In this document: piece by piece, positions 5,159-50,079 of the stretch
Numbering within the stretch: position 1 is the stretch's first letter
How the letters are laid out: each line of letters begins with the position of its first letter
Assembly (NCBI GenBank): GCA_977862235.1
Contig: OZ374561.1
Location: 930,001 to 994,000, forward strand
Source: Dudresnaya verticillata
Lineage: Eukaryota
Direction of reading: 5' to 3'
DNA: 64,000 nucleotides
Translations under genes and position numbers: made by a program
The notes under the pieces: model-generated
What the model saw: only the letters and a program-made list of their open reading frames with translations
Told to the model about the DNA's origin: nothing
The model's database searches: none

Positions 5159-5692
5159 TTCATTCTACTTTCTTCCTCCGCTGCCTACACTCACCGTCAT
5201 CGCCGTTATGCCGGCGCCCGCACGCGGCGACGTTGTCGCTGGCGAGGCGGGTGCCGGTACCGCTCTACCTCATCGCTTACGGCGATTCGATTACCAACGC
5301 GACGCGCTCTCTGCAACAACTCCGGTGTCTGCTCTGTTTCGAGTGCCTTCCCTCGCCCCCGTCGCCCCCGGCGCACGGGCCGAACCGGGAATGGCGAGCA
5401 AAGAAGGAGCCCGGACATGCTTGGCGCAGCGCGACTTGCCAGACCCTGCCGCACCCAACCCACTCCGTTGCTTGACTTCGGAAAACGAGGGGTCCCCGCA
5501 AGCCAAGCTGCTCCGCCGGCCGATGGAGAAGTCAAGAGTCCGCCCGCCGCCGTCGTCGTATGCTGCTGTAATGCGATAGAGGTGTCTACAGTCGAAGTTT
5601 TTCAAGCGACGTGTACCAATGGCAACAGTGGTACGTGCCGTGGAATTTTCTTCGAAAATTCTCAAGGGTCTCAGGTAGGTCCTTGTGTCGAC

Positions 5693-5743
5693 GGGGCGAC
5701 TTAGCGCCCTTCGAACCCTACCATAAAGTTCCCCCATCTCTCT
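5693..5743 (+). repeat. Short dispersed repeat, copy 1 of 3
   Basis: GGGGCGACTTAGCGCCCTTCGAACCCTACCATAAAGTTCCCCCATCTCTCT; reverse-complement copies at 20509-20548 and 31131-31199. Confidence 0.85.
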
Positions 5744-6614
5744 TGACACTTCTGGACGGTACGACCGAGAAGTAGGATTTGGGCACAACAGTCAAGATGC
5801 GAACGAGCACAAGGTCTGCGCTAAGTTTGTCACTCTCTGGCTAGTCTCAGTCTGAATGGGGTCGGACTTGTAAAGGGGCGGCTTTTTTTCTTCTCAAGAC
5901 GAGGCCACGAATAGACGGCGCAGTGCGAGGTGCAGACGCGGAGGAACGATAACAGCGGTGGTGCGCTCAACAGCGCAGCGCGCAAGAGGTGGTGACACGG
6001 GCAGACAGGACTGCACTTGTCGGGGGGGCTTCCCGGGCACTGTAGGGCAACAGGTCGATGCTGCGCGCAAGCATCTACGACCTGCTATTCTCTGAATGAT
6101 GATGGGCGAGAATTATTTATGGAGCTCAGCGCTGCGAGAAGGGCGAGGGCGTTGAAGCCATTCACAAGGCGATTCGCCGGACGGAAATGAACACCAGGGT
6201 GACAGAAGTGGGACGCAGTTTGTAGGAGACGTGCATAGCAGTGCGACGGCGTTGCGTGCGACGCGCAAGGCAGAGGAAAGCAGGCGGGAGGGTAGGCGGG
6301 AGCGCAGGCGGGAGCGCGGCCGAGATTGGAGCTCTGTGGGCTGGAATTTCCGAGTCGGAAACATAGGTGCGTGCGCCTGTGGAAGGCGCGGTGTCCGACA
6401 GACATCACACGGCGTCGCGCGCTGACAATGCCAAAGTGATCCGAATGCTTTTCCGTGGTAAAAGCACTTGCACCCGGGCCGGTGCACGTCCACGGCTGCG
6501 TCTACCTCGTGCAGCCTCCCTCTTCTCCCGCAACGCGCCCGAGCAGCCGCGACAACGACAAGAACAGCCCCGCCGTCCGCGCGTCCCGCACCGGTTGTCC
6601 AACCCGCCGCCGCC

Positions 6615-7201
6615 ATGTGCAACGCGGCGCTGCCGCCAGGCATCTCCTCGGTACGTCCGCTTCCGCCCGCGCGCGCCGCTCGCGCGGCCTTCTCGGCCGT
6701 TCCCGCCGCCGCTAACACGCCTCCGCCGCGCGCGCCGTGCGACCCGCGCCGCGACCCGCGCACGACGCGCAGGGCACCGCGCAGCTGATAATCATCATCA
6801 ACATCCTGTTCCCAGGCGTGGGCACCATGCTCGCGTCCGTCGTCGGCTCGGGGTGCCACTGCGACACGTTCCTGATCGGGCTGCTGCAGCTGGCCACGGT
6901 GCCGATCGGATGGGTGTGGGCGCTGTGCTGGGGGCTCAACCTGCGCAAGCAAGCCGTGGCGCGCGAGACGGTAGGCGGCGGCGGCGACATCGAGGCGGCC
7001 GCCGCTGCCGTGCCTGCGGCCAAGCCGCAGCGCAAGACGAAGAAGAAGGTGCAGGCGCACCACCACGCCACGCCCGCCGGATACCCGCGCGACGGCGACC
7101 GCCACACCGGCGCGACCGCGGGCGCGCCGCCGCCCGCGCCCGCGTACGCGGCGCCGCCCGCGTACGTGCCGCCGCCGCCGCCTGCGTACCACGTGCGGTA
7201 G
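6615..7201 (+). CDS. Spec3/Stum-family small membrane protein with Pro/Ala-rich tail; predicted join(6615..6650,6773..7201)
   Basis: The motif IINILFPGVGTMLAS...GLLQLATVPIGWVWALCWG resembles Spec3/Stum. Intron 6651-6772 has a GTACGT donor, GCTAAC branch point (6711-6716) and CAG acceptor; the phase-0 join is in frame. High GC3. Confidence 0.8.
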
Positions 7202-7654: not shown

Positions 7655-7841
7655 GCGAGCCACGTGGCGCACGCCCATCTTTCCCCTTCCTCACCACCCA
7701 CACAGATTCCGCTCGTGCCTCGCATGTACCCTTCAATTGATTCAATTGATTCAATTGAAGGGTACAGTACATGCGAGGCACGAGCGGAATCTGTGTGGGT
7801 GGTGAGGAAGGGGAAAGATGGGCGTGCGCCACGTGGCTCGC
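7655..7841. repeat. Perfect foldback: 75-bp inverted arms around a palindromic core
   Basis: 7655-7729 is the exact reverse complement of 7767-7841. The core 7725-7766 is TGTACCC-(TTCAATTGA)x3-AGGGTACA. Confidence 0.95.
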
Positions 7842-7913
7842 GGCGCGTTGCGGCTGTCGCAGGTGCCTCTGCTTGAAGCGGCGACGAGCAAGCGATGCTG
7901 ATATAGCGCTGCC

Positions 7914-8356
7914 TGTGGAAAAACTGAAGCAGACTGACTGCTGAGGGTGCCAGATTGGCGCTTAGATGCGACACAGTTTTATCTACGTCGCAATAAATCT
8001 ACTTAGTCTTTATTTACTTTTGCTACAGTAAACTATTTTATAGTGGATAGGTCGTACATTTAGAGACTAGAGCTAGTCTTTTTCTGAAGATAGAGTTAGT
8101 CTTTTATTTAGTAGACTAACGCTGCAAAACTAGCTCTAAGATTGCGGTTTTACCTGCCGAAGTCTTGGCTAGCAAGCGCTCCGGCAGAGTATAAAGGGCC
8201 TCCCTCGCCGGCCAACTCGGCGAGGAAAGGACACATTATCAACTCAAACCACCACCCCAAAGCCACTACTTGACATTTCTTTATTTACCGTCAACCGCTG
8301 TACGCATCGTGTGTATTTTTCCCGTTTTTGCTTACAGCCGCGCCGGTTCTGCCACA
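7914..8356 (+). repeat. 5' LTR
   Basis: Identical by eye to 14170-14612; TG...CA ends. Confidence 0.97.
8190..8225 (+). promoter_or_regulatory. LTR TATA box followed by a GC-rich hairpin
   Basis: TATAAA at 8190-8195; CCTCGCCG (8203-8210) pairs with CGGCGAGG (8218-8225). Confidence 0.55.
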
Positions 8357-8365
8357 TTGATCAAT
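8356..8365 (+). other. Palindromic site replacing the tRNA PBS
   Basis: ATTGATCAAT is a perfect 10-bp palindrome that includes the last A of the LTR. No TGG-starting PBS follows the LTR. Confidence 0.8.
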
Positions 8366-8385
8366 TACGCTCTACCGCCGCCGTT

Positions 8386-9123
8386 ATGCCGCTACGAAGC
8401 ATCCTAAGTAAGTTTTTCATTTAATTTTTGCCTGGGTCTTTGCTCTTGCAAGTGGTAAATTCTCTTTGCTCGATTTGGTGTGCCTGAAGTGCTATAATCC
8501 CAAATTAAGTCACTGACGATTTGCCATTTATTTTTGAACCAATCCTAACTTGGCTTGCAACAGTTCCGACCACAGCCGCCTCGACACCTGTCTTGGCGGC
8601 GGGCATCGTTGCCTCCGGCGGCGCGGCCAATCTACGGGCCCCCGTTGCGACTGTAAGTGCTACCGTTACAGTCCCGGAGTGCAACGAAATTAAAAGTGCC
8701 GCCGTGCGCACTATACGGGCCAACGCCGTATCTAAGGGGCTATCTACGTCGACGACGCCGCCGCCTTCGTCGCACGCACTACCGCCTGTGTCGCGCAAGC
8801 CTGCCGTCGCCGCGCCGCGTCCCGCACAGCTACAGCGGTTGAACCGGCGCAAGGCGAAAGTCCTGGCCGACAAGATAAATAAGGCCGCCAAGAAAACGCG
8901 TCAGGCACCGCGCGCGAAGCGTTTCTGCAAGCTGTGCAAGATTTCTTGCAACGGGCCGAAACCGTGGCGCGACCATATCGAGTCACGTGCCCATATTCAA
9001 GCACGCGATAATCGGCGCGAGCTACCGCGCTGTAAGCCGTGCCACCGCACATTCGAGTCTCACGGACACCTGTCCCGCCACTTGAACAGTAAGGGCCACC
9101 TCGACGTAATTTCGAAACTCTAG
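8386..9123 (+). CDS. Retrotransposon accessory protein with two matrin/JAZ-type C2H2 zinc fingers; predicted join(8386..8407,8564..9123), 193 aa
   Basis: Fingers CKLC-X12-H-X5-H (8926-8994) and CKPC-X12-H-X5-H (9031-9099) follow a basic stretch. The ORF has no ATG of its own, but a GTAAGT donor (8408), CTAAC branch (8545-8549) and CAG acceptor (8563) join ATG 8386 to it in frame (A+TT=Ile). Confidence 0.8.
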
Positions 9124-9213
9124 ATTCTTTTGATAAAATTTGTTGCTTTCAAAAGAATTGTCTCAACTTAACAAAAGTTTCGAAATACCGTACACGTGCA
9201 AACCCGACCTGTA

Positions 9214-10896
9214 ATGGCGGACTCGGAGGATACCACCGTGCCACCTCAAGGGCTACCCGCCCACGGTAACCAAGGTGCTCCCGTCAGCTCCCCAAACGAG
9301 TTGGAGGAAACCGACTCAGAGGCATCTTCCTTGCATACTACCGTACCGTTTGCAGAAAATATCCGCCTTCACACCGTTGCACAGAAGACTTTTGTTGATG
9401 TCATCCGCACGTATCAGGAATGCAATGTGACTGGTTCAGACTTCCTTGACATGCTTCGGGAAGACTATCCACCTTCTTTACTATTCGATGTTGCTATTGC
9501 ATGTAATTTTGCTTTGATGAGAAGACTTGCCCTATTCTTACCAAGTAAGGTTGGTGTACCGTATGCTCCACATGAGTCGGGATATGTTCCCAACCGGTTA
9601 GCTGTATCAATCTATGAAGGTCCCTATCTTGCTTCAGCATACCGTCATATCAGGAGCATGGTTTTGTCTCTCGGTAGTATCAACAGATCTGATTCGAGTA
9701 TCGGTTCGTCATCTCGCGACTCTGTTCCCAGAAGTCATGGCAGTAAATCTGAACGCCCGGAACGACACCTAGCACTAAAAACTGAGGATGGTAACGAAGA
9801 CTCGGATCAGCCATCTGGTGCTACTATAGGTGCTCGGTCACCGGCTCACAACATGGCCGTTCGCTTCAAGGATGATTCCAAGAAGTTCTCTGGTGCTTTA
9901 GGAGAATGCTGGAAGGAATACTTGGAGGACTATGTTGATGCCGCTACTGACTACGAGTTGACCGAAAAACAGAAGCTGCAGTATCTTCCCAATATCCTTA
10001 AGGCTAGTGCTAAAAGGTACTTTAACCGCAAAGTTAAGCACTCAGCTCACTCCTTCACAGCTGCAGATGATATGATGGAAGCGTATTTCAACTCCATCTC
10101 TCGACAGCATCGTATCGAGAATCATCTCAATATGCTCCGCATCGAGAAGTTCCTTTCAGGGACAGTTAACCTCAGTGATGCATTGGAGAAAGTCGATGAG
10201 CATATCTCAACGCTCGCTCCACAAGGCCCAATGCACTGTCGTGCTGAAGCTAACATGGTCGTCTACCTTCGTCGAGCAGTCATTGGACACTCGTGGGCTA
10301 AGGAACCAATCAGCCGTGCTTCAGCTGAAAGGCTGACTTACCAAGAGTTCTTCTCTCAACTCGAATCGGCTATTCAGCAGAACAGAGAGGAGAAATCTCA
10401 TAGGGCTCAGATGAATCCCCGCAGCCGTTTTATCGGGGCTTCGCAGCCTGACTTTCCTAACACTCTACTTGCTAGATACGGAAGAGACAAGACTGTGGCT
10501 TTTGCCAGAGGTAATAGTAAGCCGGTCTCTGCCCAATCAAGCAATATCGTGTGTTTCAATTGCGGAAAGAACCACATAATTAGAGATTGTAAGGAAGTCA
10601 TGGACGCAGCAGCAATTGCCGCACGAAAAGTTCAGTTTTATCAGAGGAAGAAGTTCGGAAATAATCAGAACAAAGCTTTGAAGCGAGTTTTGTTTGAAGT
10701 TTGCGAACAACTGAAACCTGAGCCTGAGATTGAGGATGCCGACACATTCTTCAACGTCAGTGAAGAAGTAGAAGAGGAGATTCAAGACCAAGGTTCGGAA
10801 GATGAAAGAGAGTCGGAAGACGAAGAAGAAGAAGACTCTATCGAACAGTTCTATCAGTCCATTGAGAGTTCCATTCCCAATGGGTTGGATTTTTAG
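9214..10896 (+). CDS. gag: Gag (560 aa)
   Basis: Long ORF inside the LTR element; capsid-like region (KFSGALGECWKEYLEDY...); zinc knuckle CFNCGKNHIIRDC; acidic C-terminus. Confidence 0.88.
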   Translation: MADSEDTTVPPQGLPAHGNQGAPVSSPNELEETDSEASSLHTTVPFAENIRLHTVAQKTFVDVIRTYQECNVTGSDFLDMLREDYPPSLLFDVAIACNFALMRRLALFLPSKVGVPYAPHESGYVPNRLAVSIYEGPYLASAYRHIRSMVLSLGSINRSDSSIGSSSRDSVPRSHGSKSERPERHLALKTEDGNEDSDQPSGATIGARSPAHNMAVRFKDDSKKFSGALGECWKEYLEDYVDAATDYELTEKQKLQYLPNILKASAKRYFNRKVKHSAHSFTAADDMMEAYFNSISRQHRIENHLNMLRIEKFLSGTVNLSDALEKVDEHISTLAPQGPMHCRAEANMVVYLRRAVIGHSWAKEPISRASAERLTYQEFFSQLESAIQQNREEKSHRAQMNPRSRFIGASQPDFPNTLLARYGRDKTVAFARGNSKPVSAQSSNIVCFNCGKNHIIRDCKEVMDAAAIAARKVQFYQRKKFGNNQNKALKRVLFEVCEQLKPEPEIEDADTFFNVSEEVEEEIQDQGSEDERESEDEEEEDSIEQFYQSIESSIPNGLDF

Positions 10897-10958
10897 AACG
10901 GAGTACTCGCCAATGTCATCCTGATTTGCCAGAGTCAGAGCAAATTGACACGAGCCCG
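10887..10958 (+). promoter_or_regulatory. Putative programmed -1 ribosomal frameshift signal
   Basis: G_GAT_TTT heptamer immediately before the gag TAG. The pol frame is -1 and open from 10866. Downstream bulged stem: CGG/CCG, CTCG/CGAG, TGTCA/TGACA, ATTTGC/GCAAAT (10899-10958). Confidence 0.75.
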
Positions 10959-13900
10959 AACGCTCCGCCTAATTTACTATCTGGCATGAAAAATCCGATT
11001 CTGTTTAGTGCGTTCAAAAAAGGGAAAAAACCAAAAAGTAGAAAACAGAAAAATCCAAAAAGTAGAAATAGACCCTACATGCAAATTCTCAACACCGGTA
11101 TAGAAGACATTAAGTTGGACAGTAGCTCAAATGACTTCCACGGGGCTTGCATAGACACTGGAGCTCAACGCAGTGTAATTGGAAAGCAACAGGCAAAAGC
11201 ATATTGCAAGAAGGTTGGAGTCCAATTCAAGCAAAAAGCTTCTCTGCTAAGGTACCGTCTTGGCAAGGGAACATTTTCTGCTATAGGTTCAATCCCAGTT
11301 AGAATTTGTACACCCGATGGAAGAGTTCTGAGGTTGAACGTTGACGTTATTGATGTGAATATTCCATTCTTACTTGGTCTAGATTTTCTAGATAGAGAGA
11401 AAATATTCGCGGACAACGTTGACAATCAGCTGGTCTGCAAACTAGGATGGCATATGCCAATCGTTCGCAAGTTCGGTCATCTTTATGTCGATTGGACGGA
11501 CTACACCGTCAACTTTACCAAAGCAGAGCTGAAGAAACTCCATCTACACTTCTATCACCCTACTGTACAGAAGCTTTACGCTCTGCTCAAAAGAGCTAAA
11601 CCTGAAGAGGTTGACCACGACACGAAGAAGCTTCTAAACGAAATTACTAGAGCATGCCAAACTTGTCAAAGATTCACTCCACGACAACAGAGCTTCAAGG
11701 TTTCATTTCCAAAGGGAATCGTATTTAACCAAGAGCTCGCGTTGGATTTAATGTTTCTTGACGGAATGGCAGTACTGCATGTCGTGGACTTGCAAACGCA
11801 TTTTAGTGCAGCAACATTTTTGGCTGGTCAATCGATACAAGCTACTTGGTATGCATTCTTGGAATGCTGGGCTACCGTATACACTGGTTTCCCAGACTCT
11901 ATTAAGACAGACCAAGGAAGCTTATTTACTTCACCAAAGTGGAAAGAAATTATGGACGCCCACGGTATTGCGTTTACACTTACCGCCGTAGAAAGCCATA
12001 ATTCCTTAGGTGCTGGTGAAAGGTATCACGCACCATTGAGAAGGATTTATCACAAAATCCGACATTCTCAGCCGAATATTGATGTCATGATGGCTCTTAG
12101 ATTAGCTGTCAAGGCGATGAATGATACTATGAACCCTGAGGGGCTCGTTCCTTCCCTCCTCGTCTTCGGTGTTCTACCAAGGTTTCCTGGAGCATCTGAA
12201 TCCTTACCTGATCAGCAAGAAAGAATGCAGGCACTCTTGCTTGCTAGACTTGAGATGGAAATTATTTCTAACGAACTCCGTTTACGGAAGGCATTAGAAT
12301 CGAGGCTTCCGCAAGCTGCTTCTCATGAGCTGGAAGTTGGACAGGAAGTTCTAGTGTATCGAGAAGATGAGAAACCGATCAAATGGACTGGACCGTTCAA
12401 GATCAAGAGATTAGAAGGGAAGCAAGTGTTCATAGATCGAGATGGTACTGAGGTTCAACACTCAGTAGCCCAAGTCAAGCCGTTCCTTCAAGAGGAGGAA
12501 GTCGGTGAAAACTTTGTGGACGTACTACACTCAATGGTAAGGCTTTTCGTTTCCTGCAAAGGCAGAGAACAGGAACCAGCTCAAGTGTATGTCACTGAAG
12601 TTCTACATCCCAGAGACCCTAGAGGAGGCTCTCCAGAGTTCTTGGAAGCTAAGAAGAAAGAGATTAAAGGTCTCATTGAGAAGGGTACTTGGAAATTAGT
12701 ACTGAGAGAAGACGTCCCCAATAACGCAAACATATTGAATGGTAGATTTGTTTTGGCTATCAAGAATGCCAATACTAACGAAGAGATTTTTAAAGCAAGA
12801 TATGTGGTCCAAGGACATAAGGATAAGGAGAAGAACTTCTTGATCCACAATTCTACCAACGTGAGACAGAGTTCTACGCGACTGATGATGGCAATAGCTT
12901 CTATGTATGGCTTCCGCGTCTGGAGTCATGATGTTAAACAAGCTTACTTGCAGAGCTCAGAACAACTTTTGAGAAAGGTCTATTTGAAGCCCTCAAAGGA
13001 GTTCGAGCTAGCACCCAACCAGTTGTTAGAGCTTCTCAAACCATTGTATGGTCTACCAGATTCTGGAGATTACTGGAACCAGACCATGCTTCTGCATCTT
13101 ACAAAGGACCTGTACATGCAGCGGACTGTCAGTGATGTTTCCTTGTTTTTCAGGTACATCGACGGAAAACTCGCAGGAATGACGGGTTCCTATGTAGATG
13201 ATTCGTTACACTGTGGTAACGAAAAGTTTCTGAAACTTTCCGACAAGTCTTTAGAAAAGTTCGAATCAAGAGAAAGAGAGTTCGATGATTTTGTGTTCGC
13301 AGGAGTGGCCGTCAAGAACTCTCCAAATGGATTTCAGCTTGGACAAGAAGACTACATAAGGAAGCTTTCTATCCTCCCGTTAGATTGTAGTTACTCTGAT
13401 TTCAGGTCCAGTCGTGCTAAATTGGCATGGGTTACTCACACTAGACCTGACATATGTTTTATGGTGAACAAATTAGCGCAAGTAACAGCAGCAAAGTTCG
13501 ACATCGGACAAATTAAGAAATTGAACAAGGTCGTTAAGAAGATTCAGAAGGATCCGAAGAGATGCCTACAGTATCAAAAGTTGGACTTCCGCACGTTACA
13601 TCTCAAGGTGTACGCTGACTCGTCATTTGCTAATAACGAAGATCAGACCTCTCAGCTAGGCTACATCGTCCTACTAGCAGATGATTCGGGCAAATGCAGC
13701 ATAATTCACTACTCCAGCCACAAGAGCAGACGCGTCGTTCGGTCTGTACTTGGTGGGGAAGTATATGCCTTCGCTGATGCTTTTGATTTCTCTTTCACCC
13801 TGAAGCACGACCTTGAACGCATTCTGAAGAAAAGAATCCCACTCAAGATCTTCACGGATTCTCGTAGCTTGTTTGACGTAATCACGAAAGCGTCTTCCAC

Positions 13901-14126
13901 TACTGAGAAAAGGCTAATGATAGACATCACAGCGGTTCGGAATGCTTATGATGCAAAAGAGATATCTGATGTTGGTTTCATTCGTTCTCAGCATAACCCT
14001 GCTGATTCGTTTACAAAAGAAGGAGCAAATGATGCGCTCCATGACATTGTTTCAAAGGGAAAATACGACCATCCTATCGAACAATGGGTTGTTCGAGACT
14101 GGAATACTTCACTAAAAATGTCTTAG
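10887..14126 (+). CDS. pol: Pol polyprotein: aspartic protease, integrase, reverse transcriptase, RNase H
   Basis: Protease CIDTGA; integrase HLHFYH...CQTC with LALD, KTDQG, GERYH; RT KARYV, DVKQAY, LYGL, YVDD; RNase H YADSS, FTDSRS, ADSFTK. Uninterrupted. Confidence 0.96.
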   Translation, partial: GFLERSTRQCHPDLPESEQIDTSPNAPPNLLSGMKNPILFSAFKKGKKPKSRKQKNPKSRNRPYMQILNTGIEDIKLDSSSNDFHGACIDTGAQRSVIGKQQAKAYCKKVGVQFKQKASLLRYRLGKGTFSAIGSIPVRICTPDGRVLRLNVDVIDVNIPFLLGLDFLDREKIFADNVDNQLVCKLGWHMPIVRKFGHLYVDWTDYTVNFTKAELKKLHLHFYHPTVQKLYALLKRAKPEEVDHDTKKLLNEITRACQTCQRFTPRQQSFKVSFPKGIVFNQELALDLMFLDGMAVLHVVDLQTHFSAATFLAGQSIQATWYAFLECWATVYTGFPDSIKTDQGSLFTSPKWKEIMDAHGIAFTLTAVESHNSLGAGERYHAPLRRIYHKIRHSQPNIDVMMALRLAVKAMNDTMNPEGLVPSLLVFGVLPRFPGASESLPDQQERMQALLLARLEMEIISNELRLRKALESRLPQAASHELEVGQEVLVYREDEKPIKWTGPFKIKRLEGKQVFIDRDGTEVQHSVAQVKPFLQEEEVGENFVDVLHSMVRLFVSCKGREQEPAQVYVTEVLHPRDPRGGSPEFLEAKKKEIKGLIEKGTWKLVLREDVPNNANILNGRFVLAIKNANTNEEIFKARYVVQGHKDKEKNFLIHNSTNVRQSSTRLMMAIASMYGFRVWSHDVKQAYLQSSEQLLRKVYLKPSKEFELAPNQLLELLKPLYGLPDSGDYWNQTMLLHLTKDLYMQRTVSDVSLFFRYIDGKLAGMTGSYVDDSLHCGNEKFLKLSDKSLEKFESREREFDDFVFAGVAVKNSPNGFQLGQEDYIRKLSILPLDCSYSDFRSSRAKLAWVTHTRPDICFMVNKLAQVTAAKFDIGQIKKLNKVVKKIQKDPKRCLQYQKLDFRTLHLKVYADSSFANNEDQTSQLGYIVLLADDSGKCSIIHYSSHKSRRVVRSVLGGEVYAFADAFDFSFTLKHDLERILKKRIPLKIFTDSRSLFDVITKASSTTEKRLMIDITAVRNAYDAKEISDVGFIRSQHNPADSFTKEGANDALHDIVSKGKYDHPIEQWVVRDWNTSLKMS

Positions 14127-14151
14127 TATGCAAAAGTGACCAAGAAGGATT

Positions 14152-14168
14152 AAGCGAAAGAGACGGGA
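14152..14168 (+). other. Polypurine tract
   Basis: AAGCGAAAGAGACGGGA, 1 nt before the 3' LTR. Confidence 0.7.
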
Positions 14169-14169
14169 C

Positions 14170-14612
14170 TGTGGAAAAACTGAAGCAGACTGACTGCTGA
14201 GGGTGCCAGATTGGCGCTTAGATGCGACACAGTTTTATCTACGTCGCAATAAATCTACTTAGTCTTTATTTACTTTTGCTACAGTAAACTATTTTATAGT
14301 GGATAGGTCGTACATTTAGAGACTAGAGCTAGTCTTTTTCTGAAGATAGAGTTAGTCTTTTATTTAGTAGACTAACGCTGCAAAACTAGCTCTAAGATTG
14401 CGGTTTTACCTGCCGAAGTCTTGGCTAGCAAGCGCTCCGGCAGAGTATAAAGGGCCTCCCTCGCCGGCCAACTCGGCGAGGAAAGGACACATTATCAACT
14501 CAAACCACCACCCCAAAGCCACTACTTGACATTTCTTTATTTACCGTCAACCGCTGTACGCATCGTGTGTATTTTTCCCGTTTTTGCTTACAGCCGCGCC
14601 GGTTCTGCCACA
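14170..14612 (+). repeat. 3' LTR
   Basis: Identical by eye to 7914-8356; followed by TSD CTGCC. Confidence 0.97.
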
Positions 14613-16603
14613 CTGCCAATATCATTGTTGCAGCCAGCAGCCATGTCGCCTTCTCCCCATTAGAATTTTGTTACGCTCTCTGCCCCTCGCCTACCTTATG
14701 CTGAACCATCTGTTAACCGAACAGTCCTGTCGCAACGATACTGTTATCGACGGTATGGAAAGGCCTCATACTACACGCGGCCTCGTGCAAGTCGCTTCCC
14801 TCCTACTTCTCATCTTTTGCCCGAACGGCGAACAGTGACTGACTCCCCAACAACGCAACATCAACACCAACAAACAAATTCATCCATGCTTTGTTGCGAC
14901 AAGCAACATCTCGTGTCGCTTGACCTAAAATCTTTTTCTTTTTCTTTAGCCATTGCTCAACAAATGCAATGTTACGGCGGAGGTCTGCGCAATATTTCCT
15001 TTGGCATTTCAAGTTTGATTTATCGGTGTTTTTGTTTAGCATTGTCCTGCGCAGGAGGCGATTACGGCCCATTTGCGGGCACTCGTACAGCTGGCATAAC
15101 ATGAATATGGCTTCATGAATTTTTTTTTCTTTGACGAGTACATCCGTTCGTTGAGACAACGTTTACAAACATGAACGCTTGATCTGGCTTTGGATGTTGA
15201 ATTGTAACCATAAAGAGAGCCAGAAAATGACGTAATACTGAAGGGCTAGTCAAACTATTGAGAGAGATGGGGACCTTTGCAAACTATTGCGGTCTTGAAA
15301 ATGACCCCAATGGAAAAGGACGCCTACGAGATGATTCAACACTGTCAAACGTATTCGCAGTCCTTGCTCGAAAGCTAGAATGGTTTCCGCAATTAATCCT
15401 ATTCTAGAGGTCCCTCTCGTTGTCTGTGGCTATGCTCCAGTGCCAAATTCTGCCTGCAGAAATGGAATTCACCATCACCTCTGTGTAGTGGAGGCAATTA
15501 CAAATTGGAAAAACTTGAAGGGAAGACGGGCTACGACAAGGGTGCGTTATACTTGTTGGTCATTCTGACTAGTGCAAATGTGAAACTGTGGTCTTCCTAC
15601 CGTCGTGGAAACACTTTGCCAGTGTAATTCTGTTTGAACGCACAGTTCACCTTGTCGAGACAATTCTTGTCTTCCAACTAACGCGAATATTGGGAATGTC
15701 TCAGCAAGGTTGAAGCTATGCGTGGTGTCAGAATTGCAAGAGGGATATCCATACTTTAGAAGGTCATTATGGAAGATATCCATTGAGTTACGAGAAGAAC
15801 GGGTTACTCTCTTTTCTGTAATGTACATTACGCGCATTTGCATGTCATCTGAAAGAAGGTGCAGGAGGCGTCAATCTCCCATATACATTGCTTGATGGAT
15901 TTGCAGTGCAATGTATTGCTGCATTCGGGTGCCCTGAATTTGGAAACCATTTCTATCTCATCACCACAGGAGTGTATCAGGTCGCACCACAATGTCTCAG
16001 CTATGTTGCGAAACGTGCATTGCTCCTACGGGCCCCCCACAGTCTGTTGCGCTCCCCTCCTGTACGTATTACTGCGCAGGTTTAGCGCGTTTATATTGTC
16101 TTCAAGTCTTAAGAGTATTGTACTTGTCTCTTCAAATGCAACAGGTCCAAACAGGCAGGTGGTAGACAGACACAAAGTTTCGAGCATCAACGTTTTAACA
16201 AATCACAGACGTGGCAGTGGCTTCGTCGTTGGCGTGTAGACCAGACATCACTCCTGATTACCACCCTGCCCTTCAAATACGTTTGGGACAGAGTACGTAT
16301 TTCCCTCGCTCGCCTCCATTGTTCAACTGCACAGTGCTCAGAGTGTTGCTAGGATCACGAGCCATGAAGCACGTTTTAGCATCCATCCGGCCTATCTGAT
16401 ATTTTGGTGGCCTGGCTCGTATCCCCAAAGCCCGTGTAACAGCCCATTAGTATAGAGAGACACAGACTCTTGGTCATGTTGCAAAGTCATATTCAGCAGA
16501 AGTATTCACTATGGGCCTTTAAGTCACCCGAGCGGGACCACCTAAGACAACCATTAAAAGTTTACCATCACTGCGCTTGATGATTCCATGTTACAAAGCC
16601 TGG

Positions 16604-18121: not shown

Positions 18122-20508
18122 GGTGTACCGCTAAGCAGAGCGTCACGACTGCCAGTGCTTCTGGCTGCTTCCGCCCAGCGATGCTTCTGAAATATGTATT
18201 GCTCATGCGGAGAGGGAACCGTAAACACCGGATTGAGTCAGACTGGACTGGTTGGCAGACTCTATGGAGTAGAAGCGCCTAACAGGTGGTAGCAATGAAG
18301 GGCACTCGGTTGTGGCTTGGAGAATGCGACTTTTCAGCCCTGAAACGAAGAAAAGACTTGAAGCAATCGGTAGCACTATACAATTTTGCCGCTTTGATCG
18401 GTAGTACAGTGTAGTGTTATCGATATGGACAGTCTACTAGAAAGCCACAATTGTTCAATAGTGGTCCAGAATGTGCGCTCCACGTACAGCATCATTTAAA
18501 AAAGGCCAACTTGCCATTGTAGAGACGAGACGTGCGAGTATCACGTTGCGTACAACGGTACTTCCGATGCACATTGTCTCTCTGAGGAGCATCAAAGCTA
18601 TGAGAGACGCTCATAATGTCGCTCAATTGACTTTGTTATGACCACTGCTTGGACAGCTAAGGGTGCGAAGCAGGAAACTACTGGCTGGCATGTGAAAGGT
18701 ACGGCTATAGACAAGATGAAGAGGGCGACACGTTCTGGCTCTTAATTACATACCAGATGCCAAGTTCTGCATCCGTGGCGCTCTAAAGCTCCTGCAATTG
18801 GGCTCTCTATTGCATTGCAGTAACACCATCCTTATGGTCAAAACTGCTTGCCTTTCTCGACGTCATTGCGAAGCTAAACTTACAAATGGTCCAAAAAACA
18901 GCGTACAACAGGTACTGAACACTCGTGGTGTCCAATACACCGATATGATGCTTAGGTGTTTTGTAGAGAGGTTCTGTATTTGAGCATATAAATGGCATTT
19001 CAAGCCTGCGAAGAAACCAATTTACGATCAACACGGAAGGGCGTATTCTTCACAGAAAAACGTTGTTCAGATGCTCTTCGTGAGCCATTCTAGCCTTGTG
19101 AAATCTGGCTCGATAGTTAAGTGCTTCACATCACTGCGTATGAATACGCGGGGCGCATATCGCGAAGAGCTCATGTCGTTGCTATTACGCGTCCACAGAG
19201 ACTCTGTGGCTTTTTCGAAGCTCCTGTCTGTGGAGGTCAGCCGAGAGGTGTGGTGCTAAACCAGGGGTCGTTGTTCTCAATAGAAAAAAAACTGAACCAC
19301 TTGCGCTGGCATCCGTTGACAGTGCAGAGAGATCAAACAGGATTTGTATCCTGAGGGTTGTGTAAGATAGTTCCTCTACAAGGAGTTTGTAAAGTTGACA
19401 CAGTAATCCTTAAAGGGGGAGGGGCTTGTAGGCTTTAGAGGAAGGCTATTTCCTTGGATTGCGGAGTAGAAAGCATCCGGAGCAAGTCGGCAGTATCAAG
19501 CGAGCCTGATACGGAAATCCATGGAGGTCTGTTAGGATGAGCACGAGAACGGGCTCAAGGAGAGTTACATGGCGGGACATACTTTCTCACAACCGATACT
19601 GACTGCTCTTGTGGCACAGGAGAGCAGAGCATCAGCTCTTCGACTTTAACCTCCTCACCGTCTCAAGAGCCGCCAATAAACTTGCAGTATTCTTTACCAG
19701 TACATTGAAATAATCACCAGGTGTGGTCGGGTCCATCTTCCATTATGGCATCTGGGAGCATATTGAGGATGCAATGGCAGTCTTTCAAAACACTGGTAAC
19801 GCTGGAAATACTCCATCGTCGCCTGGGGCTTCTGCTATGTTCTTTGGAGCTTCAGAGAGAGATTGCTGAACACAGCTAAAAGCAACATGGGCCGAGGAAG
19901 AGTTGCCTTCACAGACATCGCGTAGTCTTCTCGTAACAGCGCTATATTTCAGCTTCTCGCTAGTTGTGTTGATATGCTTTCCTGCAGCGGCTTCTTTTCT
20001 TTAGCGGCGTCCTCAGCGCTTCTTTCTTGCTCCAAAGTCCTCACTGCGGCTACTGATGCTATATCTGCCTCACAGGGTGACTGTTGGCTCTGGACAGCGC
20101 AAAGCCCCATCAACATCGGGGCATCCAAGCTCATTCTTATTGTAGAGGAATACGGGCCTCATAGGCCAGCTTTTTTGCGGCAACGGCTCCTCGCATGCAT
20201 TCTTTTAGTTATACATGTTTAGCGTGAATTGCCGCAACCTATCCCCTCCTCCTGCAATGTGTCCTGGTAGTTAGACTCTTTCCCAGGGTTGCTTTTTTAG
20301 ATTAAAATAATGGTTGTGCTTCAGTTAGTTTCACAGTATATCGTATATTCTTGCATGTCCCATCAACCGTATAGTTTCGAAGGAACCGCATCGGGTGGAT
20401 GGGCTTCGTATTCTTTTACAGCGGATTTTCCTTTATCGATGATTTACTGTAAAATGCATTACATGCTTTAATTTACCTCGCAAGAAGGTCTTCGATGCTG
20501 CTTTTTTA

Positions 20509-32120: not shown

Positions 32121-34140
32121 ATCGGGAGTGCGGGTGCCTCAGTCGTCGAGGAAGAGCTCGACATCGGGGCCGAGGGCAGCGCACCATGACGGGAAGGCGG
32201 TCCGCAGGAAGGCAGAGCGGTCTAGCTAGAGACTTCAGTCGGGGTACTGCCTTCATGTCTTTCGAACGGAGGTGGGCCCTCTTTCCGAGGGTCAAAGCCC
32301 ATTTCCAGCAGGAGACCGACGGCTTCATGACGTGGATTGATTGTCGCCTTTATGCGGCGAGGAGCATCTTGTCGAACAGATTTCTAATTGGCTTCGCGTC
32401 CTCAACAAGTTCAACATCTATTGGTATCTGATCTATGGTAACGCAATCGTATCAGGTGGGCCGAGGCATATTTCAACGCCCTGTGAATGACAGGGATACG
32501 AGGTGGGCTGTCATAGCTCTCAAATCCTAGAATTACCGTGTTCGCAGTCGTCGGACCAAGCTGAGAAGAAACCTGGCAGAGGTCGTCACTCAGAGCAATT
32601 TGGACACGCACATGGGCGTACAGGGCGTTTAGTATCTGGGCTTCGTCCTACCTAAGCCAGATCACGAGGGCAATGGAAGGGTTTTGGAGTGCTTTATTGC
32701 TCATCTTCAGCTTTTCATATGGACCATGTCTGGAACGCGTATGATGGTGGTTGAGAGCCGTCGAATAAGACTCCAACAGGCTTGACCAGCTCCTCTGCAG
32801 GGCTCTTCCGGATCCTTGAAAGCAGCTTGAGGTGAACGCGTTTGAAACCCGAAGACAGCTGAGACTCTTGTATAGGACAGTCCAATACCAACACTGGGAT
32901 GACCGTTGTGCGCGGTTGTAAAAGTATCGCTCTGTCATACTTCAGAGTAAGTGCCTACTTGGCAGCTATGTTTTTCTTTTGTCAATCCGCATCATGATCC
33001 GCAGGACAATTTTAGAATGCCAGTCGCCTGAAAAGCGTTGCACTGACTAAGGATGCCCACCCCACCTGACCAAATACGTACGGTACGAGTAGGGTTCATT
33101 CCTTTTGCCGTTGTAACTTTTCTGCTACTGTCAAAACATTATTGATAGTCTGAATGATTTTGATTATCTACGGAGGATTTCTTTTGCAATAAGCTCATTT
33201 ATTAATTATTATATAAAGCTCATAACTGCAACAAAACCAGTGGAAAAAGGGCAGTCCAGTTTTTGGAAACTTGCGAAACTGATTCAAAAACACTCCATTA
33301 CCGCATTACAGCATCTTTGTGTTGCAATCTCGCTTGTTACAGAACCTCTCTAGCGCGCTAGCTGCGCACAAACCCTGCAAATGGTAAGCACTTCATCCGT
33401 GTAAAGAACACCGGCTTCATCAATGAATCATCATCTCTGTCGACGAAACGATGATTTCCAAAAAGCTCACAACACTTGTTCCTGAAGGGCCACCTGGCAG
33501 AATATCAGCCATAAGCAAGTGATAGGCCAAGTCGCTCGATGATATCATGCATAGTTCATTTATCAAGGTTACGTTGTGCTGACTGTGAGGTCCAATAGGT
33601 CACCATACCTTATTAGTATCTTTGCGTTCAAGGGTACAGCTGATGTGGATGTTGCGAGGTTCTGAAAGATGGGGCAGCACAAGTGTTTACATTTTTCTCT
33701 GTAACTTAACTTAGATCAGAACGCCAATGACAACTCCAACAGAATCAAGTGCACCTCGATCGGGAATGAGGTTGAGATTGTCGAATAACTGTATTGGTCA
33801 TTCCGTTTCAGAAGCGAAAGAGGAGGATCCTCTTGCATTAACTTACGGTAGAACTGTTTTGAACAGCCCAAATCAGAAGGCTATTGGTACTGTCGAATGA
33901 CAATGCAATTTTTTTGCAGGTGCGATTCGCTTCGATTGTTTGGCTCTTGTTTGACCTCGGACTAGAGCTTCACAGAAGCAACTCAAAATGAGTGAAGCCG
34001 ACATCCTCAATCTCGGGTTCGGAATCAGCGGGCGATATAAAGGATGCATCCCTTCTTCACAGCGCGGCACGAGCGAAACTGCACAGCAAACACTCGTCAG
34101 TACTTTTACACATACTGCATTCCACAAGTACCTTGACGAG

Positions 34141-35955
34141 ATGAGGGCTTCGATTTACTTCTTTCTCTTCGCCCTCTTTGCCTCACCGTTCTCAACCATC
34201 GCTGTTGCGCAAAAATGCCGTCAAGGATCTTTCTTCAACGGAGAAAAGTGCGTGCTTTGTCCGCGTGGGACCTACCAAAACGAAGAAGGAAAGACTTCTT
34301 GCATCAAGTGCCCAACTGGGACCGTCGCACTTGTTCGTGGGGCCGAAGGGGTTGACGCTTGTCAGGGGTGTGGCAAAGAAAAGTTCAGCACTCCTGATGG
34401 AACGAAATGCAAGCGCTGCAGCCTAGGCACAAGTGCTGTTCCAGGTTCTGTCAACTGTGTCTCTTGCCCGATCGATTCCTACATCACAGATAGCGGAGAA
34501 GGTCGTTCAACATGTGAGAGATGCAGCAAAGGAGAGTTTACCCTGCGAAGAAACACTCTGTTCCTATGCAAAACTTGTAGGGGGAAAACGCGTTTTGACC
34601 GCAAGAAGCGCCGCTGTGTTGCTTGCCCGCCCGCAACGCGATCTCAGAATGGGAAGTGCAAGCCTTGTCGTAATCGGTTAATTGTTGGAACCGATGAGTA
34701 CGGCAGCCTCGATTGTATTCCTTGCCCTCCAGGCTTCGTTGGGGATAAAGATGTTATGTCGACAAAGTGCATACCATGCCCAAGTGGAACACGCTCAGCT
34801 GCAAATGGCAGATCCTGCATCAGTTGTGACTCTGGGGAAAACACATTCGCGCGAGGAGCAAGTGTTTGTGTGCCAGACTTGACGCCTTGCCCGGCAAACT
34901 TTTTCCGAAACCGTCGGGGCACTTGTCAGCGCTGTAACAGGGGCCAGCGGCTGAATCTGAAACGGAAGAGGTGCGAAATATGCAGAAACAATGAAGAGAG
35001 TGCTGGAGGCGTGGCTACCAAATGTACTCGATGCCCCAGTGGTGCAGTTCGTTCAGCTTCAGGCTGCGTGTGTCGAAAAGGAAGAGGGAGAAATCTTGAT
35101 GGAAGTTGTTCTGTGTGCAAACCAGGCACAGCGGTGAATGAGTTCTTTGAGTCCGGTGAAGGCGTTGACATTGTTGAGGTGAGGTGCTCAAAGTGCGGTC
35201 CAGATTCCATCTCTGCGAAAGCAGGAGCTCCTTTCTGCAGAGGGTGCCCAAAAGGACAATTCCAGCCGAAGGAAGGGCAAACGAAGTGCATTCCGAAAGG
35301 CAAATGTCCGAAGGGTTCGGTACCTTCAGGATCAGGGGTCAGAGACGAATGTCTCAGAAAGGCTACGAATTGTCCTACGAACTCGGAAAGAGTGAATGCA
35401 AAGGAGGGATCGTTTTTCTTCTGCAACGTAACAAGTTCAACTTGTGGGGAAAATCAGTTCAAGGTGAAGGTCTCAAACGAGTTTGATGTGGGAACGCCAG
35501 ATGCGGAGTCGGGATTCTTCAAGCAAGATTTGTTCTACTGTTCTGAATGCGGACGAGGCCGGTTCTTCAACAGAACAGATTCGTCCTGCAAGAGGTGCCC
35601 ATTTGAATTTTTCGGAGCGGGAGGCATAAATCCTTGCAAAAGATGCAAGGATGGCAAGCTGCTGGATCGTGAGCGAGGATGTGTGTGTTACTCTTCAAGG
35701 AGATTAGGAAAGGGTGGTAAATGTGAGAGCTGTCCTCCAGGAACTTTTGGGAGGCAGTTCCGGATCGGTTGTACTCCCTGTGAGGCTGGGACCTTTCAAA
35801 ATGAAGCAGGGCAATTCTTCTGCAAAGCATGTCGTTCTGGGACTTTCAGCGGAGAAGGAGCTAAGTCTTGCACGCCTTGTGGCGAAGGCGAAATAAGTAT
35901 TGGCGAGGGGAACGCGAACTGTGTTGTACCCGGGTCTCTCAAAGGCACGGGCTGA
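34141..35955 (+). CDS. Secreted cysteine-rich repeat protein (GCC2/GCC3, ephrin-receptor-like CxxCPxG repeats), 604 aa
   Basis: Signal peptide MRASIYFFLFALFASPFSTIAVA; many CxxCPxGT(Y/F)QxxxGxxxC repeats; no C-terminal TM; TATAAA about 100 nt upstream. Confidence 0.9.
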   Translation: MRASIYFFLFALFASPFSTIAVAQKCRQGSFFNGEKCVLCPRGTYQNEEGKTSCIKCPTGTVALVRGAEGVDACQGCGKEKFSTPDGTKCKRCSLGTSAVPGSVNCVSCPIDSYITDSGEGRSTCERCSKGEFTLRRNTLFLCKTCRGKTRFDRKKRRCVACPPATRSQNGKCKPCRNRLIVGTDEYGSLDCIPCPPGFVGDKDVMSTKCIPCPSGTRSAANGRSCISCDSGENTFARGASVCVPDLTPCPANFFRNRRGTCQRCNRGQRLNLKRKRCEICRNNEESAGGVATKCTRCPSGAVRSASGCVCRKGRGRNLDGSCSVCKPGTAVNEFFESGEGVDIVEVRCSKCGPDSISAKAGAPFCRGCPKGQFQPKEGQTKCIPKGKCPKGSVPSGSGVRDECLRKATNCPTNSERVNAKEGSFFFCNVTSSTCGENQFKVKVSNEFDVGTPDAESGFFKQDLFYCSECGRGRFFNRTDSSCKRCPFEFFGAGGINPCKRCKDGKLLDRERGCVCYSSRRLGKGGKCESCPPGTFGRQFRIGCTPCEAGTFQNEAGQFFCKACRSGTFSGEGAKSCTPCGEGEISIGEGNANCVVPGSLKGTG

Positions 35956-41000: not shown

Positions 41001-42413
41001 TTCACAAAGCGACATAACGATGTGTGGTTTGAGCTTGAAGGATTTTAGAGCTGCGTTGAAAGTAGAGATAAGCGGTGATGCTGGACGCGTTTAAGTTGAG
41101 CATGTTGCGCGCCGGATGCCGCTCGCAGCATGACCATTTTCCTTCAGAATTGACATATCGCGTCAATTGGCACATGTCTTGTGTAGCGCGAGTCGGGGCG
41201 AGCACAATGCTAGGATGGGGCATTCTTTCGAGAGACAGAAGTAGGCCAAAAAGCTTTGCACTGCAGGACACACAATCTGACGGCGCAGAGCTTTAAAAGT
41301 GATAAATCGATTGGAAGAGTGGCTTGGGTTGGGTTTAGTTTAGCATCGCTGAATTGGATCCGTTTCGGATTTGGCGATAGGGAAACAGCCAGTGCTGACC
41401 AATGCGTACATACAGCTTCCATTCGTTATGCTGGGATCTTTCTTTGAGGTGTGGCAGCTGCAGGTCGGCAATTCCGGTGTTGTTTGATGATTTGGGTTCC
41501 TTTCCTGGTGTAACGTAATCTTGTGGCATGGAAGCAGTATTCATGGCCAGGCTCTGTCGCACCCGAAAGTTCTTAAACTATTTGTTGTAGCTGGGGTGGG
41601 GAGATTTCTGAAGGGCCAACGAGGTGGTTGAAGGGTAATAGAATTTCCTGTAGATACAACTCGCACCAGTGCCCGTCTTTTTGTTCGAATGGGGCAGTAC
41701 AGTCAATCCTTGATGCAAGATTGGTGCGATAAAGGAATATCCGTGGTAAAAGAATACGCCTTCCGTCCACCGATCCGGTTCCTTTGAAATCAGCCAGTGC
41801 ATGTGGATGAGGCCTTCAAGAATATGTGATAAGGGAATACAGAATCCGAAAGTCGCCCGCCTTGGACCGCAATGCAGCTCACGTACGAGGACGACATTTC
41901 TCGATAGTAAGAATATGACTTCGATGCATGAAGTTGATGGTGGCATTGCGCCCTCCAGAGCACCCAGTAAACTTGTGAGGCAACGTTTATATTAGTAGGT
42001 CCCGCGAGGACTATTGAAACATGGAGGAAACCGGTAACGAGATCAGCGCATCGCTACAAAGCAAGTCAACTGGAGAGAAAGTGAATGCATCTCTGGTGCG
42101 CTACATGATGACTCTGAAGGCATCCCTTCATCTGCCGATGTTACGTAAGCCGCGTTCAGTAGTCGAGACTACTGAAGAGACTACAGTCTCTGAAGCGCCA
42201 GATAAGTCAGAAGATGTCCCAGGCGTCGATAAAGCATTTATTTAGCAAGTAGAACAGCTTTCTCAGTGTTTTGCAAGAGTGCTCCAGCATTTCCCCGATA
42301 TATTCTCCGATGCGATAAAGGAATATGAAGCCGTCCACACTGATTCTTCTTATAAAAAGTATTGTCTGTGTTGCATAGTAGTAACATAACACAGAAAGTG
42401 TATCACACGCAAT

Positions 42414-43226
42414 CAGGGCTTCAGGCAATAACATTGCAAGTTATTGCTCGCCCAAATTCAATAAGCAATATGTTGCAGCAATGCTCTCCCCTTCGGCAAT
42501 ATATATTGCAATATAGCCGCCATTAAGCCCCAATAACACCTGCAATATATGCCTACGTCGTGCAAGAACTTTATGCAATGCGATGTTGTTTTATGCGCCT
42601 ACGGAATGAAATACGTGATTATGACAGCTTCAATTAACAAGTTCTTCCTGTAGAACATGCTGTTTAAGTCTGGCAGCAACACGGACAGAACGAGCAGCTT
42701 GTATAGCATGAGAAACAAGATGCAATTCCAAAAACCGTTCATTCATTTTGGGGTAAGCACACACCTTTATTTTAATCTAAGGAGCAACCCTGGGAGAGGG
42801 TCTAACTACCAGGACACATAACAGGAGGAGGGGATAGATTACGCGGATTACTTAATCTTTTAGGGCTAGCTGCAACACATTGAAGAAGAAGCGTAGTAGG
42901 GGACGTTAATAGAGCAAGCTTGCCAGTGAGGGGGGGGGGAGGTCCCTTTGTTGATAGCAATGCAATTTACAGCATTGGGGCTAGAAACACTCTGTAATCT
43001 TGGGATCCAACAATACAACTACCGCTCACCCAGAAAACCGCGCATAAGAGTATCGTATACCACATTTAACAATAGGGCTTCCAATATTACTACTCAACCC
43101 AATAGGTATTGCAATATGTATAATGTCACTGCAACAAGAGTGCAATTTTCATTCAGCAACTCAATGTGCTATTGCTATTGTGTATTGCAATATATTTATA
43201 TTGCAATTAATTGCCGGGCAGCCCTG
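42414..43226. mobile_element. Non-autonomous hAT-type DNA transposon (813 bp)
   Basis: Imperfect TIRs CAGGGCTTCAGGCAATAACATTGCAA and the reverse complement of TTGCAATTAATTGCCGGGCAGCCCTG; 8-bp flanks CACGCAAT/CGCGCAAT; dense subterminal CAATA/TATTG motifs; no ORF. Confidence 0.8.
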
Positions 43227-43533
43227 CGCGCAATACAATACACTTCCAACACATGAATAGCGAATAAAGGAATAATCACGATATTTGAATACGGACACGT
43301 TTCCCAAGATGGGAAGGCGGTAGAAGTAACTAAAACATAGCCGCATTGCGTTCCTTCGATGTTTGCATTCTCATTCCCACGATATCCGCGGAGTTGAATA
43401 TCTCCTCTGGGGAAAAAGCCTGTCTCAGCAGAGAGTTTGTTTCGTTTATTGGGACCCGTTAAAAGGGCGCCGTCAAAATGGGAGGAAGGCAGAGAGTTTG
43501 TGGAGAGAAAGAGAGAGAGAGATTTTGTACAGT

Positions 43534-43923
43534 TTTACTGGGACCCTTTAGACGGGGAGCGAAGCTATTTCCTTGGATCGCATGTTGCGTGTAGAGAGAG
43601 AGATTTTTTGATGTTGATTATACGAAGTTCCTGCTTGCGGAAGTGAGGCGAGGGATGTTGTGATACTGAATATGGCTGTTGTTGCCTAAGATAATTGTTG
43701 TGACCGGGCCCCACTCTTGCTCCTGGAAGAAAGGTACTCTCTCTCTCTCCCTCTCCCCCCCTCCGTATTGCCTACTCGCCAGTGTGGCTGGATAACAACG
43801 AGGCAGGTACGCGGTCTCCCTTGCAGTCTTTTAGGTCATTCTTAACGCGCTACGCTGTCGCCACGCGCCCAACATGCGATCCAAGGAAATAGCCTCGCTC
43901 CCCACACAAAGGGTCCCAGTAAA
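43534..43923. mobile_element. Foldback/MITE-like element with 54-bp inverted repeats
   Basis: 43534-43587 vs 43870-43923, about 5 mismatches. Complementary GA-rich and CT-rich tracts lie outside the arms. Part of the arm (GGCTATTTCCTTGGAT) recurs at 19444-19459. Confidence 0.75.
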
Positions 43924-47696: not shown

Positions 47697-48398
47697 CTGC
47701 TCCACGAGAGGCGCAGCGCAGGCGCGCTGGAAGGCGTGAAGATGGGATTGTGGAGCGCGGGCGAGCTTGGCGCATGACGACGGAGGAAACTTGGAGGACA
47801 CCGCTGTGACCCGACGCTTTCCGACCAATCACGCATGGAGAAGAGAAGCTTACACTAAACGCGCTGCTCGCGCGCTACAGTGTTGGGCCTGTGGCACTAC
47901 CAATCATACATTCAACTGCGGCTGTGCCGCACAAAAGGCGTCCCGGCCGTGCTTGCGAGCTCAGCGCAGGCGCGATGCTTTCTGCGTGCGCGGGAGAAGG
48001 CAGCTACGAGCGGCGAGCGGCGAGCGGCGCGCGAGGAGACCCGATGGTAGATGAGTCCAGGCGGGGTGCAGGTCGCGAAGAACGGGTGACAGGCATAGGT
48101 GCATGTTGCTGCACACCATTGCATTGCACGCTACGATGACAGGCGTTGTACAGCCGGTATGTCGAGGCTTGAGGTGGTTGACAACGCTTCTGGAGTTTCT
48201 GTTTTCGAGTGGCACTCTGGCCGTTGTGGTCGTCTCCTTCAGGCGGCCATCACCGCTGTGCGCGGTTCTGAGGGAAAGTAGTGAAACCACTTGCTGCGGA
48301 GCGCAAGTTGTCGCGCCTGAGTGCTTCCGGCCGTGTCGCTCAGAGCTCGCGGCGTGGTGACGATTAAACGTTTATATTGTCGCGCGACAGAGCAAAGG

Positions 48399-50053: not shown

Positions 50054-50079
50054 CCCCCCCCCCCCCCCCCCCCCCCCCC
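50054..50079. repeat. C26 homopolymer
   Basis: 26 consecutive C upstream of the RBR gene start. Confidence 0.95.

Follow-up and report, generated by a model that had tools for sequence, protein, structure and literature searches.

LTR retrotransposons are usually treated as elements encoding only gag and pol, and spliced accessory regulators are a hallmark of the complex retroviruses with few cases among transposons. Such a case is CERV, which is made from a spliced mRNA of Cer1 in C. elegans and is required for the export of the genomic RNA (PMC10309623). In bdelloid rotifers, additional open reading frames are common to different types of retroelements (PMC5408684). The GalEa-like Copia elements occur in fungi and in red algae, for example, PyRE10G of Porphyra (PMC5445492 and PMC3587641). 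For the fungal GalEa elements a Conserved Hairpin Site has been described (PMC5445492), which consists of the palindromic CHSeq1 and a complementary CHSeq2 12–41 nt downstream. The terms "additional ORF" and "zinc finger" have 0 occurrences in the available text of this paper. Likewise, a full-text literature search returned no description of a zinc finger gene of the kind reported here in red-algal LTR elements; most subscription papers (including that on PyRE10G), Repbase and supplements lay outside its scope.

The DNA analysed here is a 64-kb stretch of Dudresnaya verticillata, referred to as the window (64,000 nucleotides). It contains a complete LTR retrotransposon of Copia order, which together with its target-site duplications occupies positions 7909..14617, and between the 5′ LTR and gag of this element lies a gene for a protein with two zinc fingers. 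Irrespective of what it does, we consider it highly probable that this finger gene is kept as an accessory gene which depends on splicing, the splicing itself being predicted. The element has the following parts:

7909..7913: left target-site duplication CTGCC
7914..8356, plus strand: 5′ LTR of 443 bp, TG..CA, with TATAAA at 8190
8356..8365, plus strand: 10-bp palindrome which includes the last A of the LTR and replaces the tRNA primer-binding site
9214..10896, plus strand: gag, 560 aa, with a zinc knuckle C-X2-C-X3-H-X4-C
10887-10893, plus strand: likely -1 frameshift site at the gag end, a T-rich stretch plus stop
10866..14126, plus strand: pol, in the -1 frame relative to gag and overlapping it, with protease (DTG), integrase (HHCC, DD35E), RT (YVDD) and RNase H domains in Copia order
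14155..14169, plus strand: purine-rich tract adjoining the 3′ LTR
14170..14612, plus strand: 3′ LTR of 443 bp, 100% identical to the 5′ LTR
14613..14617: right target-site duplication CTGCC

An earlier note, made from the letters of the window, had described an intact and young Copia element, and this description holds in both respects. LTRs, target-site duplication, gag and pol are all present, and the TG..CA LTRs with target-site duplication as well as the order protease-integrase-RT-RNase H are those of Ty1/Copia elements. With two identical 443-bp LTRs and a 5-bp duplication the element is very young. The RT is of the RVT_2 type (Pfam, E 2.4e-22), and the T-rich stretch plus stop at the gag end is also found in two related loci, L001 and L003. 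Among 116 pol matches the closest named relatives come from Chondrus crispus and Hildenbrandia rubra. These red-algal nearest relatives and the motifs (compare PMC3587641) fit a GalEa-like element. The palindrome resembles, with variant letters, the CHSeq1 of the fungal GalEa elements (PMC5445492). A CHSeq2 partner for it was not found by eye, the palindrome region folds no better than shuffles (z -0.3), and there are no tRNA genes within the 64-kb window.

Some further observations concern the element and its surroundings. The four closest relatives of gag have a zinc knuckle with one residue more than that of the window element (C-X2-C-X3-H-X4-C, around 10552-10590). A near-perfect fold-back with 75-nt arms that are 100% complementary lies at 7655-7841, 72 bp upstream of the 5′ LTR; its centre contains further palindromic, short repeats, and either a young foldback element or an error of the assembly may lie behind it. 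Four more inverted-repeat pairs, 72-82% complementary, are located at 20233-20438, 41727-43947 and 59750-61465 and are possibly old DNA-transposon ends, and a weak match to the gag profile at 47812-47937 (E 4e-3) is possibly a decayed element fragment. Host genes of the window with a Pfam assignment are a cytochrome P450 (16604-18121), an ephrin-receptor-like Cys-rich repeat protein (33988-35955), an S41 peptidase (45843-47696), a RING/IBR-like protein with a weak match (49868-51673) and an alpha carbonic anhydrase (59731-60801).

The finger gene is predicted to consist of two exons, and its parts are:

8386..8407, plus strand: predicted coding exon 1, 7 codons plus 1 nt
8408..8563, plus strand: predicted phase-1 intron of 156 nt with a GTAAGT donor, a CTAAC branch motif at 8545 and a CAG acceptor which is the first AG past the branch
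8564..9123, plus strand: exon 2 with an Ala/Pro/Thr-rich region, the basic helix, two fingers and the stop
8845..8892, plus strand: Lys/Arg-rich predicted helix before the fingers (AlphaFold2 model residues 34-49 and family alignment)
8926..8994, plus strand: finger 1, C-X2-C-X12-H-X5-H, matrin/JAZ type
9031..9099, plus strand: finger 2, C-X2-C-X12-H-X5-H, with F-X5-L as its core and a helix whose His and Arg are conserved in the family

The composition that the earlier note had given for the region between 5′ LTR and gag, that is, two fingers of this spacing in addition to Ala/Pro/Thr-rich and Lys/Arg-rich stretches, was recovered in full. On the contrary, its uninterrupted open reading frame is not there. 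The genomic frame from the ATG at 8386 closes after 12 codons at the stop codon 8424 and is a uORF in the unspliced RNA, and the frame of the fingers (8509-9123, 204 codons from stop to stop) contains zero Met. Excision of the GT-AG intron 8408-8563 yields exactly 193 aa; the length of the protein claimed before is thus exact, but only when the predicted intron is removed. An alternative in-frame acceptor at 8575 is possible and would lead to a protein of 189 aa, but an AG closer to the branch motif precedes it. A fixed rule (GTAAGT, CTRAC, first AG), applied to the two strands of the whole window, picks out only 3 intron-like sites, the intron of the finger gene included. The Pfam search that had been proposed as a check gave zf-met with E 1.1e-10 and zf-C2H2_jaz with E 3.3e-8, both exceeding the curated cut-offs.

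The sequence between the start codon of the finger gene and that of gag is unusual with respect to its ATG content:

8389..9213, plus strand: ATG-free stretch of 825 nt from the finger-gene ATG to the gag ATG

No ATG is seen here, compared to 8.2 expected from dinucleotide shuffles (P about 0.0005), and no other ATG-free gap in the 64-kb window, whichever the strand, is as long. Using the same type of shuffles, the leaders of related elements have 2 ATGs versus 10.9 (L001), 2 versus 6.4 (L089, P 0.038) and 0 versus 1.8 (L092, P 0.12). Locus L118 has one ATG between donor and gag, and the two of L001 lie within the intron and, in frame, just ahead of the fingers. For L001, L089 and L118, too, a phase-1 intron is predicted from the donor GTAAGT, the branch motif CTRAC and, as acceptor, the AG that comes first after this motif. 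In all three of these relatives, which are those with the 5′ end present, the exons would join as A|TG in the reading frame of the fingers, and therefore a contiguous start codon would be absent from their unspliced RNA. The junction of the window differs, since it is A|TT with the ATG 7 codons upstream, so that the unspliced RNA would carry the 12-codon uORF instead of a split ATG. As a side observation, the motif TTGAACC occurs near branch and acceptor in three of the four predicted introns (window about 8533-8539, L089, L118; absent in L001), and L118 has two tandem LTR-like copies upstream of its finger gene (5560-6709) with the same donor motif after each.

The same shortage is visible at the protein level. 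An HMMER search with the finger protein gave 175 matches, and among the 150 of them that were listed at least 70 are short family members, a classing that is partly circular and made with a family profile of 34 of the matches (the rows of the window, the L001-like ones and L088 were left out). The short members share the basic helix and the C-terminal fingers and are highly diverse in sequence outside the fingers; in 39 of the 70 two intact fingers are found 34-39 residues apart. Internal Met accounts for 60 of 12,372 residues in these 70 proteins (0.5%), an about fourfold depletion when compared with 2.0% in the other matches and 2.2% in pol matches; the value for 14 other short matches is 1.2%, and Trp is not depleted in the 70. 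In addition, 14 of the 70 are called with a V or L start and none of the 14 other short matches, and non-Met starts amount to 2 of 66 long matches (one L, one A) and 6 of 116 pol matches. Met-poor proteins would be expected if these family members were also located in gag leaders behind introns. The 70 are known as sequences without genomic context, and ten of them trace back to assemblies of ENA, Logan or JGI, one of the ten being named, by its Pfam label. Splice-created start codons together with an ATG-free leader would explain why gene callers overlook the finger gene.

Genomic context comes from two sources, the window and G001, a metagenome assembly whose contigs may be collapsed repeats. 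A scan of genome collections with the pol alignment led to 3 loci, all of them retroelement contigs in bacterial metagenome bins, which we take to be misbinned algal DNA. G001 is the sole match among the 251 genomes of its family. This bacterial genome bin holds at least 22 contigs of eukaryotic LTR retrotransposons (Gypsy and Copia), a heavy contamination, likely by algal repeats. Scans of metagenomes and viral contigs with the gag alignment, as well as scans of viral contigs with the window pol alone and with the finger alignment, gave no loci, and a word-indexed protein search with exon 2 gave no match among 348 candidates.

Among loci up to L132 the finger motif is present on four contigs, all of assembly G001, and each time it immediately precedes gag on the same strand. 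L001 is a GalEa-like Copia sister with a pol 65% identical to that of the window, and its finger gene is intact at the same place; the two finger proteins are 57% identical over 83 residues. L089 is a chromodomain Gypsy element (RVT_1, integrase, chromodomain) with the fingers directly upstream of gag, L123/L092 is a classical Copia element (Retrotran_gag_2) whose contig begins inside the finger gene and holds one finger, and L118 is a second Gypsy element, in which a stop interrupts gag and the divergent fingers have the right spacing but do not match Pfam. Pfam zf-met or zf-C2H2_jaz matches above cut-off were also obtained for L001, L089 and L123. For the finger genes of window and L001, dN is 0.42-0.45 and dS 1.9-3.1, the latter near saturation so that the ratio is a rough one; for comparison, dN is 0.63 in gag and 0.28 in pol, with dS saturated. 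These values suggest that the finger gene is under purifying selection, with a dN lower than that of gag. Together with the intact copy in the sister element L001 and the about 70 diverged family proteins they speak for a maintained accessory gene and against the one-off capture which the earlier note had named as a refutation.

The gene is not found everywhere. Among the 11 GalEa-like loci whose sequence extends 900 nt or more beyond the 5′ end of gag, L001 is the sole carrier and 10 lack it, and it is absent from 18 of the 22 retroelement contigs of G001, many of which are truncated upstream of gag; L113 and L115 have more than 1 kb upstream of gag and no finger gene. Such a patchy presence indicates that the finger gene is not essential for the clade. 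In a quick tree of 84 finger pairs, which is based on few columns, window and L001 group with 37 short proteins (SH-aLRT 80, which is weak) and L089 lies outside the main group on a long branch; between the finger proteins of L089 and L118 there is no significant pairwise match. This tree thus speaks neither for nor against a common origin of the fingers in Copia and Gypsy elements.

Another Gypsy lineage of G001 contains a long antisense open reading frame 3′ of pol, up to 1007 aa in length (minus strand; L113 10134-11999, L114 7213-10233, L116 6695-8119). The products of L113 and L114 share 30% identity over 393 aa (E 2e-46); there is no Pfam match for L114 and a weak coiled-coil match for L113. 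We suggest that this is a second accessory gene, unrelated to the finger gene.

The structure of the finger protein gives some hints as to its ligand. In the AlphaFold2 model (pLDDT 86, pTM 0.51) the basic helix is followed by two fingers of beta-beta-alpha fold, to each of which one more helix is added. RNA-associated fingers fill the first ten places of the structural comparison, among them TUT1-U6, chains of the spliceosome and of pre-60S particles and JAZ with dsRNA (2mkn, Z 3.6), with every Z below 5; Foldseek found no match at E <= 0.001, and an Atlas feature search returned generic zf-met/JAZ clusters alone, with recognition below the reliable level. With the family profile, finger 1 matches the dsRNA-binding protein ZFa (E 8e-7), and the profile matches to the PDB are dominated by DNA-binding C2H2 arrays, many of which are matched by finger 2. 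The matrin/JAZ assignment made in the earlier note therefore seems to be right for finger 1, but it does not cover finger 2, which appears to be mixed and resembles classical DNA-binding fingers as well.

On the RNA level one region of the window is predicted to be structured:

8430..8720, plus strand: predicted stable RNA structure covering the intron, the 3′ splice site and the beginning of exon 2 (z -4.9, and -3.9 for 8560-8690 by itself)

This region and the leader stems of L001 (z -7.0, after the stop codon, and -2.9) were picked after a sliding scan. The position of the stems is not conserved, and none reaches z -3 in L089, L118 or L123. A conserved intron structure was sought and not found (z -1.3 in the window, -2.6 in L001, -0.7 in L089 and -0.2 in L118).

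How might the finger gene serve the element? Tentatively, and with a little less than even confidence, we suggest that the finger protein is a Rev/CERV-like regulator which acts on the fate of the element's own unspliced RNA. According to this proposal the spliced RNA would give the finger protein and the unspliced RNA would give Gag. The unspliced RNA should be the form that is copied, because the intron survives retrotransposition. Its leader, having no further ATG, could be scanned through to the ATG of gag, which would be reached by reinitiation after the 12-codon uORF in the window element or by direct scanning in the relatives with a split ATG. The finger protein would bind the element's own structured RNA and promote retention or export of the unspliced RNA, thereby feeding back on splicing or export. 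We rank this proposal first because it is the only one that gives a reason to tie the protein to splicing, and the predicted basic helix, the RNA-associated structural matches, the ZFa-like finger 1 and the predicted leader stems support it. Nevertheless, any regulator of which little is needed could be served just as well by a splice switch, and export is not singled out. Moreover, the leader stems lack a conserved position, finger 2 has features of classical DNA fingers and the PDB profile matches are mostly DNA-binding C2H2 arrays, the window junction is A|TT and not a split ATG, L001 keeps two ATGs in its leader, most related elements do without the finger gene, and all four relatives with known context are from the single assembly G001.

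The earlier note had put a silencing suppressor first and had listed RNA fate or export as its third option. Provided that red algae possess a full RNAi pathway, a spliced finger protein that binds dsRNA or siRNA duplexes non-specifically could shield the element in cis and in trans. JAZ-type fingers bind dsRNA with high avidity (10.64898/2026.06.03.729416), and the sharing between unrelated Copia and Gypsy elements, the patchy presence and the high diversity outside the fingers fit a portable counter-defence module. However, a suppressor has no need for a start codon which is split by an intron and kept through retrotransposition, and we regard this role as unlikely. The earlier note had missed that the gene has an intron, a split or decoy start codon and a leader free of ATG, and that Gypsy elements share it; these features favour RNA fate or export over the suppressor. 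Foamy-virus Tas and VANDAL VANC are models for yet another role, in which the finger protein would bind LTR DNA as a transactivator or anti-silencing factor and would use the basic helix as a nuclear signal. In finger 2 of the 39 members with two intact fingers, Phe is invariant and His (24/39) and Arg (23/39) stand at helix positions which we take to be the base-contacting positions of classical fingers, and the prevalence of DNA-binding arrays among the PDB profile matches points in the same direction. On the contrary, the H-X5-H spacing speaks against it, as do the 35-residue repeat, in which an additional helix takes the place of a short canonical linker, and the structural list topped by RNA-associated fingers, and one sequence-specific pair of fingers is hard to square with elements having unrelated LTRs. 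We consider LTR binding to be quite improbable, even more so than suppression.

A second nucleic-acid chaperone for dimerisation, packaging or the priming of reverse transcription seems still less plausible to us. It would suit the window element, in which the palindrome replaces the tRNA primer site (compare PMC5445492), the gag knuckle is one residue short and the finger protein is basic. But the gag knuckles of L001, L089 and L123 are normal, the finger gene occurs in lineages with different priming sites, and a particle protein would be expected within Gag. Finally, a host exon that was captured once and drifts neutrally could account for the family members with broken fingers (39 of 70 have two intact ones at the usual spacing) and for the lack of the gene in most related elements. 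This explanation is largely refuted as far as sequence comparison can tell, and we give it hardly any credit: the finger gene is intact where synonymous sites are saturated and its dN is below that of gag, ATG is depleted family-wide, and the gene has the same position in several lineages.

Returning to the Rev/CERV-like regulator, its generalized form would be that red-algal Copia and Gypsy LTR elements of at least three lineages share a portable cassette, consisting of a start-codon-creating intron and a two-finger RNA-binding protein, which works as a Rev-like feedback switch between regulatory mRNA and genomic/Gag RNA. We put this forward as a possibility that is more doubtful than the regulator itself. 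If true, such red-algal elements would be "complex" retrotransposons. A conserved and diversified finger gene behind like introns in Copia and Gypsy elements points to a shared answer to a host barrier, be it nuclear retention of unspliced RNA or RNA silencing. The switch is directly testable, since the whole element is present in the window and its two LTRs are identical.

When compared to known systems, the element shares with the GalEa-like elements the Copia domain order, the DTG protease motif, the TRPDI motif, the TG..CA LTRs and the LTR-end palindrome replacing the primer site. It differs by the predicted spliced leader gene with two fingers and by the lack of a visible CHSeq2 partner. 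The finger protein itself resembles ZNF346/JAZ, Xenopus ZFa and the matrin/U1C fingers (PF12171, PF12874) in the C-X2-C-X12-H-X5-H spacing, the Pfam matches above cut-offs and a weak structural match to JAZ-dsRNA. Unlike these, it is encoded by a transposon and has just two closely spaced C-terminal fingers behind a family-specific basic helix, with finger 2 being partly classical. As in the bdelloid retroelements, one type of accessory gene is found across unrelated lineages (PMC5408684); whereas the bdelloid ORF3s are enzymatic or envelope-like (env, GDSL esterase, DEDDy exonuclease), the finger gene codes for a small, putatively nucleic-acid-binding protein and is located 5′ of gag behind an intron. 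With Cer1 CERV and retroviral Rev it has in common that an accessory protein of an LTR element, a candidate nuclear RNA regulator, is made from a spliced mRNA (predicted here) and that unspliced RNA leads to Gag. CERV, however, is a large protein with G and M domains, a Cys loop and no similarity to known retroviral proteins, whereas the finger protein has about 190 aa and JAZ-type fingers, and its role in export is suggested by analogy.
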